Positions 1,639 through 14,011 of a stretch of 18,423 nucleotides of DNA are shown piece after piece. The stretch is from assembly GCA_046758705.1 (NCBI GenBank), contig JBHIAT010000063.1, positions 1 to 18,423 on the forward strand, written 5' to 3'. The stretch comes from Candidatus Bipolaricaulia bacterium. GTDB lineage: Bacteria > Bipolaricaulota > Bipolaricaulia > JBHIAT01. Below the pieces are notes generated by a model. It had not been told where the DNA came from. It saw only the letters and a list, made by a program, of their open reading frames with translations, and did no database searches. The position numbers and the translations under genes were made by a program. How positions within the stretch are numbered: the stretch's first letter is position 1; each line of letters begins with the position of its first letter.

Positions 1639-2113
1639 CGTCAGCGACGCACACGTTAGCCCGCGTCTGTATTTTAGTGAACACCTTTTTAAAATCGGAT
1701 GAAACCTCCGTAGAACAGGTTATACCAGATCAGGTAGACTCCGGCCCCGATGATGACAAACGCGCTGACCATCTGGACGTAGCGGATCAAAGGCCGGATG
1801 TAGCGGTAGATCGCCTCCCGCGAGAAGGCCATCACCACCGACAACGCGACCATCATCAACGTCATGCCCAAGCCGTACGAGGCAAAGCCCAACAGACCGT
1901 TGAACAGCCCCTGCGTGAAACTTTGGGTAACCACTACCATGAAGATCGGCAGGGTGCAGCTGGTCGAGGCGACGGCATAGCTGATTCCATAAAGGTAATA
2001 GAATGGCAGACGATCGTGCTGCCGAGGGTGTGGGTTGGGATTGCCTGCTCCGAGACCCAAGAATTCGAGAGCATGCTCCAGTTGCGGCAGGGAGAAGAAC
2101 TTGGCCTTATTAT

Positions 2114-2431
2114 CGGTCAATACACCGGACTTCAGTCCGCGTGGACTTTCTCCTCTTTCCATGGTATAATGATCACAGATCTTTGACAACGTATGGGGTT
2201 GTTGCCGCAACCCTGAGCAACGTAAAACGTTGTGGGTATAGCCAGGTGCATTTTGCCAGCGTTTTGCTGTTCAGCGAAACAGAAGCTAACAGCCGCGAAG
2301 CCTGGCCTAAAGAAACTAAAACGTTGTGTGTGAACTGGCCGGGCGCGGCCAGCGTGGAGGCGTGAACCGCTGCGAGAGCAAGTTCCGCCTGTGAAACGAG
2401 AAGCCCCGTACTTTAGTGCGGGGAGCGTCAC
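2114..2431 (+). mobile_element. Non-autonomous IS200/IS605-family mini-element (PATE-like), no protein gene
   Basis: Left subterminal hairpin CACCGGACT-TC-AGTCCGCGTG (2123-2143), preceded by AATA and target TTAT (2110-2113). Right end GAAG-CCCCGTACT-TT-AGTGCGGGG-AGCG-TCAC (2400-2431), the same architecture as the right end of the tnpB element at 14012-14044. It interrupts ccdA in frame. The left boundary is uncertain by a few nt (2111/2114/2117). Confidence 0.85.
2142..2170 (+). promoter_or_regulatory. Sigma70-type promoter inside the mini-element
   Basis: TGGACT (2142-2147), 17 nt, TATAAT (2165-2170), with extended -10 TGn. Confidence 0.75.
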
Positions 2432-2451
2432 TCAAAATCATCAATACGCCG
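2177..2451 (+). ncRNA. Putative stand-alone TnpB-type omegaRNA with an extra 5' domain; guide from flank 2432-~2451
   Basis: Follows the promoter and has no credible ORF. Stems: GGGTTG/CAACCC, GCAACGT/ACGTTGT, GCCAGG/CCTGGC, CTGGCC/GGCCAG, AGGCG-GAAC/GTTC-CGCCT and the terminal hairpin. Loop GGCGC can pair with GCGTC next to the terminal TCAC (pseudoknot). Confidence 0.6.
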
Positions 2452-2745
2452 AGGATCACCAACCCGACCCCGATCACAGACGCGACCCAGGGGATGTAGC
2501 GGGCGATGATGCTTCCCAGGGCGGATACGATCAACCCCAACCCCACGAAGATGGTGAAGAATCCGGAACTGACGGTTCCACCCAGCCTCAGACCTTTAAC
2601 GAGACTGGTGAACCAGTTGCGATCTGCGCCTCCCTCCCGTCCGATATAGTGGGAGACGTACGAGGGCAACATGGCAAATCCACAGGGGTTGAAGAACGCC
2701 GCCATCCCGGCGACGAACGCGAACGAAAGCAGACCCAAATCCATC

Positions 2746-12773: not shown

Positions 12774-12857
12774 GGCTCACCTCCTGATTGCGCTCACGCT
12801 ACAGAAAAACACGGCAGAGGGCACCCGGATTCATCCGGGGGGTGAATGCCGCCGCTC

Positions 12858-12886
12858 TTGACAAACCTTCCCTAATCATGTATATC
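12858..12886 (+). promoter_or_regulatory. tnpB promoter (probably leaderless transcript)
   Basis: TTGACA (12858-12863), 17 nt, TATATC (12881-12886). GTG at 12893 lies at the expected +1 and has no RBS. Confidence 0.55.
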
Positions 12887-12892
12887 AGAGAT

Positions 12893-14011
12893 GTGAAAAC
12901 TTTTGAGTATCGCCTGTACCCAACCAAGAGCCAGCGTGCCTTGCTGATGGCCTGCCTCAAAGAATCCAGGAAGCTATACAACGAGATGCTGGCAATGACC
13001 AAAGTGCAGTACCGCCAGACGGGTCGCTTCCTGTTCAAATATGCACTGACCAAGGCATTTAAGGGGCGTGGACAAGCTGTGCCTGCCACAACCGTCCAAT
13101 GTCTCGCTGATCGGCTTGATAAAGCACTGCACAATTTCTTGGCTCGCAAAGAGTTAGGCCAGCCAGCAGGATTCCCACGTTTCAAACCGCCGAACCGCTG
13201 GCACTCCATCCATCTCAGACAGTGGGGCAAATATCGAGATGTCTTCTTTGACGGCAAGTATCTGAAGGTCCCTAAGAAACTGGGAGGTAAACTCAAAATC
13301 AAACTGCACCGCCCGTTTGAGGGTACCCCAAAGACCTGCCATCTTGTCCTACGCGCTGACGGCCATTGGTATGCCCTCATTCCCTGTGAGATTCCAACAC
13401 CCCCCCCAGATCCCTCTAAGCCAGAGATCGGGTTGGACATGGGGCTAAAACACTTTTTGGCCGATTCAAACGGCAACACCGTGACCGCCCCCCAATGCTT
13501 TCGCAAAAGCCAAGCCAAGCTCCGAGTCAAACAACGAACGATAAGCCGGAGACCAAAGGGCAGCAACCGCCGTCGCAAAGCGGCTAAAGAGACCGCTCAC
13601 GTGCATCTGAAGATTGCGCGGCAGCGGCGGGACTGGCTGTTTAAGGTGGCCAAGCCCTATGCTGAAGATTACAGCCGCATATTCGTCGAGGACTTGAACG
13701 TGAGCGGAATGCTCAAAAACCATCATCTGGCCAAGAGCATCTCTGACGCATCGTGGAGCATGTTCCTTGAGATCCTGGCTGCCAAGGCTGGGAGTGCTGG
13801 GCATGAGGTGATCAAGGTTCCTGCACGCTTCACGACACAGAAATGCTCGGCTTGCGGTACGCTGGTTCCCAAGTCTTTGAGCGTTCGCACGCATATTTGT
13901 CCTTTCTGCGGCTTCATCGCTGACCGCGATCATAACGCCGCGCTGAACATATTAACCGCTGGGGCGCAGCGGTCAGGCGCTAACGTCGAAGAAGAGTTCG
14001 GCGTTGCCTGA
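12893..14011 (+). CDS. tnpB: RNA-guided endonuclease TnpB
   Basis: KTFEYRLYPT N-terminus, GFPRFK, RuvC-I GLDMG, RuvC-II VEDLNV, Zn ribbon CSAC..CPFC and RuvC-III DRDHNAA. The D-E-D triad is intact. Start could alternatively be ATG 12878. Confidence 0.95.
   Translation: MKTFEYRLYPTKSQRALLMACLKESRKLYNEMLAMTKVQYRQTGRFLFKYALTKAFKGRGQAVPATTVQCLADRLDKALHNFLARKELGQPAGFPRFKPPNRWHSIHLRQWGKYRDVFFDGKYLKVPKKLGGKLKIKLHRPFEGTPKTCHLVLRADGHWYALIPCEIPTPPPDPSKPEIGLDMGLKHFLADSNGNTVTAPQCFRKSQAKLRVKQRTISRRPKGSNRRRKAAKETAHVHLKIARQRRDWLFKVAKPYAEDYSRIFVEDLNVSGMLKNHHLAKSISDASWSMFLEILAAKAGSAGHEVIKVPARFTTQKCSACGTLVPKSLSVRTHICPFCGFIADRDHNAALNILTAGAQRSGANVEEEFGVA

Follow-up and report, generated by a model that had tools for sequence, protein, structure and literature searches.

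A boxA-like motif at the 5′ end of the predicted RNA of an IS200/IS605-type mini-element from a Candidatus Bipolaricaulia bacterium

The mini-element and its insertion site

The DNA analysed here, called the window, is a stretch of 18,423 nucleotides on contig JBHIAT010000063.1 of a Candidatus Bipolaricaulia bacterium, whose genome of 319 contigs is referred to as G000. At 2112..2431 (+) it contains a 320-bp mini-element of the IS200/IS605 type, PATE-like and free of open reading frames (ORFs), which carries at 2178..2190 (+) the motif GATCTTTGACAAC. By sequence reading and pattern scan this motif resembles boxA, a signal known on ribosomal RNA (rRNA), a few mRNAs and CRISPR leaders, and read in rRNA leaders by the NusB-S10/NusA/NusG/SuhB antitermination complex. 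The presence of a boxA-like string at this site is confirmed, and, judging from the sequence comparisons given below, it is reasonably probable that the nascent RNA of the mini-element bears in this 13-mer a genuine site of the boxA type.

The borders of the element were taken from an empty site and from its copies. On contig C77, an uninterrupted paralogue of the gene in which the element sits joins window position 2111 to 2432. Five further copies in G000 are identical to the window copy over 326 nt, making six assembled copies, and all six present TTATT before the element (2107..2111 (+) in the window, the presumed target site or transposon-adjacent motif), unrelated DNA upstream and the shared end ...GAGCGTCAC, which in the window falls at 2431; the element is therefore delimited as 2112–2431. 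There is no repeat at the 3′ side of these copies and no target duplication. The other identical copies sit in unrelated contexts and orientations, and G000 also holds contig-end fragments of more copies, as well as diverged copies at 75–89% identity.

The left end forms an imperfect hairpin, CACCGGAC-TTCA-GTCCGCGTG (2123..2143 (+), read from the sequence), and a second hairpin is found at the right end (2404–2423); the diverged copies have a different left-end hairpin, resembling their own right-end hairpin. A small ORF starting at the ATG at 2193 was considered and rejected because this codon is not conserved, being AGG in the C120 copy and also missing in the copies C244 and L108, and no conserved ORF is present.

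The interrupted gene is a DsbD/CcdA-like membrane gene on the minus strand. Its C-terminal part (1689..2111 (-)) has 81% identity to C77:15003-15437 and its N-terminal part (2432..2744 (-)) has 84% identity to C77:15437-15705. The N-terminal piece gave a weak Pfam match to DsbD_TM (PF02683; E 3.2e-4, 20.5 bits, under the cut-off of 27.1), and the piece 1689..2111 alone gave no Pfam match.

A promoter was predicted at 2142..2170 (+) with 10 of 12 matches, consisting of the -35 hexamer TGGACT (2142–2147), a 17-nt spacer and an extended -10, TGgTATAAT, in which TATAAT occupies 2165–2170 and the preceding TG is present. In the region 1900–2700, the scan returned two promoter-like sites, against 0.5 expected from shuffles, and no terminator-like site. 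The first base of the motif lies 7 nt past the -10 hexamer, which bears out the distance of about 7 nt given in the initial annotation, and a -35/-10 pair occurs at the equivalent place in the diverged copies.

boxA sites of the host genome

Genome G000 encodes Rho and NusB, detected by profile search at 627.9 and 123.5 bits, respectively, both over their cut-offs. Four boxA sites of the host were collected. Those of the rRNA genes were read from the leaders: GGTCTTTGAAAAGTGGATAG in the 16S leader, after a TTGACA-17-TATACT promoter, and GGTCATTGAAAAGTGAATAG in the leader of a separate 23S gene with its own promoter. A mismatch scan against these two gave the sites GGTCATTGACAAGTGAATAG (C3:32601) and GGTCTTTGACAAGTGAATAT (C115:553) in CRISPR leaders, both with a promoter before them and a confirmed CRISPR array after them (17 and at least 4 repeats, respectively). 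The four sites share GGTC[T/A]TTGA[A/C]AAGTG[G/A]ATA, including a 3′ extension, with which the host marks four untranslated transcription units.

The initial annotation had proposed a comparison of the motif with the boxA of the host rRNA leaders. The window copy agrees with the 16S site at 10 of 13 positions, while the diverged copies on C120, C45 and C106, which read GGTCTTTGACAAC, agree at 11 of 13. The CRISPR-leader sites are closer, since the C115 site is matched at 11 of 13 positions by the window copy and at 12 of 13 by these sister copies, and both CRISPR leaders carry the GACAA variant, as the element does. The motif also resembles the boxA consensuses of other bacteria. In passages of PMC13753749, the consensus of the NusB-binding boxA of B. 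subtilis is given as AUGAUCUUUGAAA, with NusB binding shown, and that of E. coli as UGCUCUUUAACA; the window copy matches the B. subtilis consensus, as GAUCUUUGAAA, at 10 of 11 positions. The gamma-proteobacterial consensus GYTCTTTAANA, as given in passages of a 2017 paper (PMC5725501), is matched at 9 of 11 positions by the window copy and at 10 of 11 by an element of genome G079, described below.

No similarity between the element and the CRISPR or rRNA leaders was found beyond boxA itself, and capture of the motif from a host leader was rejected. The string GAGGGTGTCTGAAAAGTGG, whose end resembles boxA, was rejected as a leader boxA: it terminates an IS5-like element (C98:1-487) and also flanks a TnpB right end (C207:1-270).

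Some features of the host loci deserve mention in their own right. The 16S (C39:13735-15353) and 23S (C166:468-2689) genes are on different contigs, and each is preceded by a TTGACA/TATACT promoter of its own and a boxA. On C39, the 16S gene is followed by unrelated genes. The rRNA genes appear unlinked; the 23S match on C166 covers only 2222 nt, for 2925 model positions. The array at C3:32500-33900 (L176) has 17 repeats of a 30-nt unit, CTTCTAATCGAACCAAGATGGTATTGAAAC, with a spacing of 65–67, and the boxA of its leader, about 140–200 nt upstream, is flanked by a 25-nt direct repeat, GTTGCGAAAAAGTCGTCGACCTCCT. On the minus strand of C115:1-3200 (L039), a TnpB/Cas12-like ORF (595-aa open frame, PF07282) comes after a gene for an IS607-like serine recombinase, and next come a promoter, the boxA and a CRISPR array with at least 4 repeats, each about 37 nt long, which runs to the contig end. 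This locus could be a small type V-like system with visible transposon ancestry.

Conservation of the motif among homologous elements

Homologues were searched in species-representative genomes with patterns of the downstream hairpin that did not include the motif. After the 70 nt upstream had been read, 67 of the 80 fetched loci were dropped as chance 17-mer matches. The search gave homologues in four other genomes, namely G151 (reached a second time as G186; 4 copies), an Actinomycetota metagenome-assembled genome, a Ca. Hakubella and an unclassified bacterium. None of these mini-elements has an ORF; each has end hairpins and a promoter of its own, the RNAs measure 190–280 nt, and the 3′ scaffolds and ends differ between lineages. 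Across the 18 distinct sequences of the 5′ module that could be aligned, C10, T12 and T13 never vary and 17 sequences contain CTTTG. The module was then turned into a covariance model, with which G000 and two partly overlapping samples of 150–151 genomes from the phylum and class were searched; this gave 12 copies in G000 and diverged copies in G079 (two) and G091 (one).

Adding these three lineage-D copies, all of which have CTTTG, the core is present in 20 of the 21 distinct homologues from seven genomes. The conservation of position across copies, raised as a check in the initial annotation, was found in the same proportion, with CTTTG in the 5′ tail of 20 of 21 homologues. Neither this check nor the comparison with the host rRNA boxA, both named in the initial annotation as able to refute the idea, refuted it. 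The core always lies within the first ~60 nt after the -10, at a distance from the -10 region of 7 to ~51 nt by lineage. Among the G000 copies, the left end and promoter are diverged and the left-end hairpin is replaced, and the conserved block starts exactly at the motif.

The copies in G079 and G091 separate the motif from the helix that follows it. Their P1 helix, described in the next section, is rebuilt from other bases, TGCCGGT/ACCCGCA and GATCGGT/ACCGTTC, which covary between the two genomes, and their motifs, GCTCTTTGACATAG and GGTCTTTGACAGCAG, are found upstream of P1, after a leader of ~28–51 nt with a small hairpin. These motifs did not drive the covariance matches, because the model aligned them out of register. 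The 16S leader boxA of G079, GCTCTTTGACAAGTGGATAG, is equal to its element motif over the first 11 nt (11/11); that of G091 is GGTCATTGAAAAG.

The most variable position of the motif, position 2, was compared between element and host in all these genomes but G185, whose rRNA leader was not recovered. Element and host agree in 3 of 5 distinct types in G000, 3 of 4 in G151/G186, 2 of 2 in G079 and 1 of 1 in G091. In addition, the L090 copy shares with the boxA of its host an unusual T at position 12, which costs a P1 mismatch.

Several other loci were set aside. L173 was dropped as a chance match, as was L175, an AT-rich and unrelated locus that was the sole one from a fixed-pattern metagenome scan; a gapped-pattern metagenome scan gave no locus. 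L197 of genome G051 was dropped for its many broken pairs and its 38% GC. Two decayed copies were observed in G000: C80:9190-9350 keeps the left-end hairpin and the 3′ scaffold and has lost the promoter and the 5′ module, and C144:4463-4620 retains a portion of the module and has neither promoter nor motif. In L069 and L085 (G151/G186), a hairpin, CGATCTTT-TTC-AAAGATCG, is inserted ~130 nt into the RNA and is absent in the shorter sisters L103 and L108. The boxA core recurs in the 5′ arm of this hairpin, the 3′ arm complements the 5′ tail, and the whole may be a decoy or a switch.

RNA structure of the 5′ module

Downstream of the motif start, the module folds into the helix P1 (2186–2192/2227–2233) enclosing the helix P2 (2201–2205/2217–2221), together 2186..2233 (+), with conserved internal loops ATGGGGTT and GTAAA and a conserved apical loop CGCAACCCTGA. 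In the alignment of the 18 distinct sequences, pairing holds in 98.6% of cells, both bases differ in 6 of the 12 pairs, and covariation reaches 0.329, compared with 0.202 for shuffles, none of 500 of which was as high; since the search patterns partly fixed the 3′ strand of P1/P2, the variation seen is limited. Because P1 covaries, the helix is real and takes in the final five bases of the motif, which is the foremost argument for a structural reading. In all lineages, conservation is higher in the unpaired parts of P1/P2 (2193–2226 in the window, and their homologues) than in the helices; these parts, (G)TATGRGGTT, GTAAAA and the loop CACAAnCCC, are presumably read by some factor, and no binding partner of this hairpin is known. 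The long hairpin P3 follows (2241..2303 (+), from the sequence and from folds), with GCCAGG at 2241–2246 pairing with CCTGGC at 2291–2296, and TAAAGA after it at 2298–2303.

A number of observations weigh against a boxA function of the motif. In 18 of 21 homologues, its last five to seven bases make up the 5′ strand of P1, and a P1 pair depends on its C at position 10; since the 3′ end of the motif is a P1 strand, part of its conservation is structural, and once the RNA is folded the pairing could make the site inaccessible. The 5′ part may also be paired, in a candidate helix P0 formed by TCTTTG (2180–2185) and the TAAAGA after P3. The core itself deviates in L072, an apparently decayed copy that reads ACGTTAACAAC and is the exception to CTTTG. 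After its core, the window copy continues with GTATGGGG, without the GTG(G/A)ATAG extension of all four host sites. At position 2, element and host disagree in G187 (0/1) and in G184 (0/6), and the Actinomycetota-type copies, GCACTTTGACAAC (6/6 in G184), differ from their host, GTTCTTTGAAAAC, at positions 2 and 3. The matching between elements and hosts is suggestive only, because the genomes are few (seven) and related. Lastly, the predicted RNA has ~255 nt, is strongly folded, has at least as much G as C and contains no C-rich 78-nt window; being short, structured and not C-rich, it offers no obvious place where Rho would be a threat.

As for the extension, it is a feature of the sites of these hosts, and only the G079 element keeps AGTG, after a 1-nt insertion. 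As for the pairing, the partner of bases 2186–2190 in P1 (2229–2233) is made ~40 nt later than the motif, and the predictions for the tail 2178–2185 are inconsistent. P0 is based on the change of TCTTTG/TAAAGA to ACTTT/AAAGT in the Actinomycetota-type copies, that is, one compensatory pair plus wobble changes; it is absent in L090, and whole-RNA thermodynamic and alignment folds give tail partners that differ by lineage.

These structures are the ground for the alternative that survives best, in which the motif would be purely structural or a protein contact, with its 3′ half serving P1 and its 5′ half either pairing in a P0 three-way junction or bound by a protein, whether specific to the element or not. 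The likeness to boxA would then be coincidental, because single strands rich in U and followed by GA are common. The strong covariation of P1/P2 speaks for it, and so do the minimum-free-energy fold of the window copy, which includes P0, the compensatory P0 pair between two lineages, the wobble variants in C159, L103 and L108, and the change of boxA position 3 from T to A in the Actinomycetota-type copies together with the candidate P0 partner. This explanation, however, does not account for the retention of the motif outside P1 in G079 and G091, where the P1 bases are wholly replaced, nor for the identity of the G079 motif to the boxA of its host over 11 nt. The tail partners vary by lineage and P0 is missing in L090, and full-length TnpB elements and C80 do without the module altogether. 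We regard a purely structural motif as unlikely. A structural role accounts for part of the conservation of the motif, but not for all of it.

Chance and DNA-level explanations

A second alternative is that the resemblance to boxA arose by chance and that these bases are merely the transcript start, conserved through recent common descent. Loose boxA-like strings are indeed frequent in G000: the 16S boxA 13-mer matches at 95 positions when up to 2 mismatches are allowed and at 1044 with up to 3, while 196 positions lie within 1 mismatch of the strict 12-mer GGTC[AT]TTGA[AC]AA. Moreover, the six identical copies of the element must be counted once. In the window, the degenerate pattern GRTCWTTGAMAA, to which R at position 2 was added to admit the window copy and the boxA of another host, has one exact match, the motif site, against 0.02 expected, and 4 of 200 shuffles had a match; with one mismatch allowed, 0.54 matches are expected per window and 84 of 200 shuffles matched. 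The window copy has one mismatch to the stricter own-host pattern, GGTCWTTGAMAA.

At the scale of the genome, TCTTTGAMAA occurs 30 times in 7.4 M positions (9 element copies, 2 leaders and 19 elsewhere), and the strict 12-mer occurs 10 times, where a hand calculation from base composition gives about one per genome; four of these matches are the host leaders, three are element copies and three are others. Thus, three types of element match the strict 12-mer of their own host, with only three unexplained matches in 7.4 M positions. Recent descent is opposed by the divergence of the left end, promoter and 3′ scaffold beyond alignment between lineages in which the motif is retained. Taken with the low expectation for an exact match, this makes chance resemblance a very improbable explanation.

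The least credible alternative, which we consider hardly tenable, is a signal at the DNA level, either tuning promoter escape as an initially transcribed sequence or supplying, as TTGTCA, the -35 of an outward minus-strand promoter that restarts the interrupted gene: TTGACA does occur inside the motif (2183–2188) and a minus-strand TTGTCA-17-TACCAT pair with 9 of 12 matches runs from 2189 to 2161, but the distance between the motif and the -10 varies from 7 to ~51 nt between lineages, so that this hexamer pair is not kept, the minus-strand -10 of C120 is TACCAC, and the other copies are in unrelated contexts and orientations. That minus-strand pair (2161–2189 (-)) is formed by the motif and the plus-strand -10 read in reverse complement, and is aimed into the 3′ part of the interrupted gene. 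The TTGACA was also tried as a plus-strand -35 and rejected, as no -10 lies 16–18 nt past it, where the bases are CGCAAC.

The 3′ scaffold and the proposed role of the module

The 3′ part of the element (2327..2431 (+)) was recognized by BLAST and by a peptide remnant as the 3′ end of a tnpB gene plus the right end of such an element. Its last 54–83 nt match C274 and C185 of the same genome at 80–83% (BLAST), with C80 also matching, and the C244 copy aligns over ~105 nt with a full-length TnpB element at the DNA level. Frame 1 of the scaffold ends in ...ETRSPVL*, against ...EARSPVL* and ...EARSPCL* at the C-termini of TnpB proteins. The last ~105 nt are thus homologous to the 3′ end and right end of the full-length TnpB elements C185 and C274, the part that is the source of the guide scaffold in such elements. 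In TnpB guide RNAs the guide is read from the flank beyond the right end; here this would be 2432..2450 (+), which differs in every copy, if the RNA acts as a TnpB omega RNA. The view of the RNA as a TnpB guide, advanced in the initial annotation, finds support in these 3′ ~105 nt only.

TnpB is abundant in G000, with 23 matches to PF07282. The window itself has a full TnpB gene at 12788-14011 (+), encoding 407 aa with OrfB_IS605, Cas12f1-like TNB and HTH_OrfB domains, whose C-terminus differs from the type that matches the mini-element. Rfam gave no match in the window at gathering score, and no known ribozyme, intron or riboswitch was found there or in a relaxed search of 2100–2460; with E up to 10, the latter gave only a weak match to HgcC (RF00062; 2334–2442, 14.1 bits, E 0.55, gathering score 50).

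From the arrangement of these parts, we propose the following model. The promoter of the element would drive a transcript in two parts: a 5′ expression module, formed by boxA, the P1/P2 hairpin and P3, and a 3′ part, formed by the ~105 nt from the tnpB 3′ end and the right end and transcribed on into the flank, like a TnpB omega RNA. On the emerging RNA, the NusB-S10 dimer of the host would bind G(G/A)UCUUUGACAA and RNA polymerase would pass to its Nus-modified form, as on host rRNA and CRISPR transcripts. The untranslated transcript could then be completed through the scaffold into the guide, regardless of the insertion site, and the RNA would be used by TnpB supplied in trans. The element would in this way probably borrow the anti-termination machinery of its host.

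The initial annotation reasoned that an element without a translated ORF would need boxA, whereas a translated one would not. The TnpB loci are in line with the second half of this argument. Closest to the mini-element in its ends is the full-length TnpB element C185, in which a promoter, a hairpin, a ribosome-binding site and a start codon were recognized but the 5′ untranslated region is free of boxA-like strings; in 23 TnpB loci (41.3 kb of sense strand), two boxA-like sites with one mismatch were found against 1.1 expected, which is the chance rate. The need itself is less evident, the ~255-nt RNA being a poor Rho substrate. The 5′ module is joined to right ends and scaffolds specific to each lineage and is missing from the deletion copy C80, which retains the scaffold. 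Since full-length TnpB elements and C80 are without the module, the cognate TnpB scaffold does not need it. If Nus factors act on the RNA, help in folding or read-through into the flank is as likely a benefit as protection from Rho.

A broader proposal, possible on these sequences but tentative, is that promoter, host-matched boxA and P1/P2 constitute a portable cassette that is joined to varied mini-elements and recruits Nus factors to guide-RNA genes, a solution that the host also adopts for its CRISPR arrays, one of which neighbours a TnpB-like effector gene. Elements that bear the cassette occur in genomes labelled as two phyla.

Comparison with known systems

The closest parallel for the motif is the boxA of rRNA leaders. 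As there, the core is that of the 16S and 23S sites of the host, the transcript is untranslated and the motif comes soon after a sigma-70-type promoter. In contrast to these leaders, the element RNA has 0.25 kb and is not a multi-kb operon, the motif is at the predicted positions +1 to +13 in the window copy, and it overlaps an RNA helix in most lineages. In the passages of PMC13753749 on B. subtilis rrn leaders, a small hairpin precedes boxA, as one precedes the motif in G151, G079 and G091.

In CRISPR leaders, as in the element, boxA stands ahead of an untranslated guide-RNA unit. Stringer and coworkers are said to have reported boxA in CRISPR-array leaders in 2020 in eLife. A CRISPR array is long and repetitive, which makes internal termination a plausible problem, whereas the element RNA is a single short guide scaffold, and the element is a transposon and not a defence locus. 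The occurrence of boxA ahead of CRISPR arrays is also mentioned, as a cited result, in a passage of PMC7862264.

The lambda nut sites and the HK022 put RNAs are signals in the RNA of mobile elements that lie just after a promoter and modify host RNA polymerase. The mini-element shares with them a boxA plus hairpin just after the promoter of a mobile element; unlike lambda nut, no N-like protein is involved or encoded by it. boxA also acts outside rRNA on suhB, where, as described in passages of PMC5725501, the Nus complex represses translation of a coding gene, a situation that differs from a mini-element without ORF.

PATE-like IS200/IS605 elements without ORFs often encode omega RNAs used in trans by TnpB, according to passages of a preprint by Meers et al. 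(PMC10055086). The present element resembles them in its hairpins at both ends, its fixed TTATT neighbour, its lack of a gene and its homology to the tnpB 3′ end and right end, as well as in the presence of full-length TnpB elements with a similar right end in the same genome. It differs in that ~145 nt of its RNA form a 5′ module not derived from tnpB; the passages of PMC10055086 name no dedicated promoter, boxA or shared 5′ module.

Significance

A literature search for boxA together with TnpB, omega RNA or transposon RNAs, with most subscription journals outside its coverage, found nothing relevant. The signal and the kind of element are each known; what would be new here is a boxA-type signal on a transposon guide-RNA element.

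If this interpretation is correct, a selfish element would be exploiting the elongation-control machinery of its host through a boxA tuned to that host, and the transcription of TnpB guide RNAs would be linked with that of the CRISPR systems derived from them. The cassette, of ~70 to 145 nt, would represent a compact natural device for the expression of untranslated guide RNAs in bacteria, and its presence would mark out mini-elements as potential origins of termination-resistant transcription running on into adjacent genes. Should the proposal of a portable cassette also be true, each insertion would be a mobile, termination-resistant promoter reading into its flank, and the Nus dependence of guide-RNA transcription would have arisen among transposons and not just in CRISPR systems.

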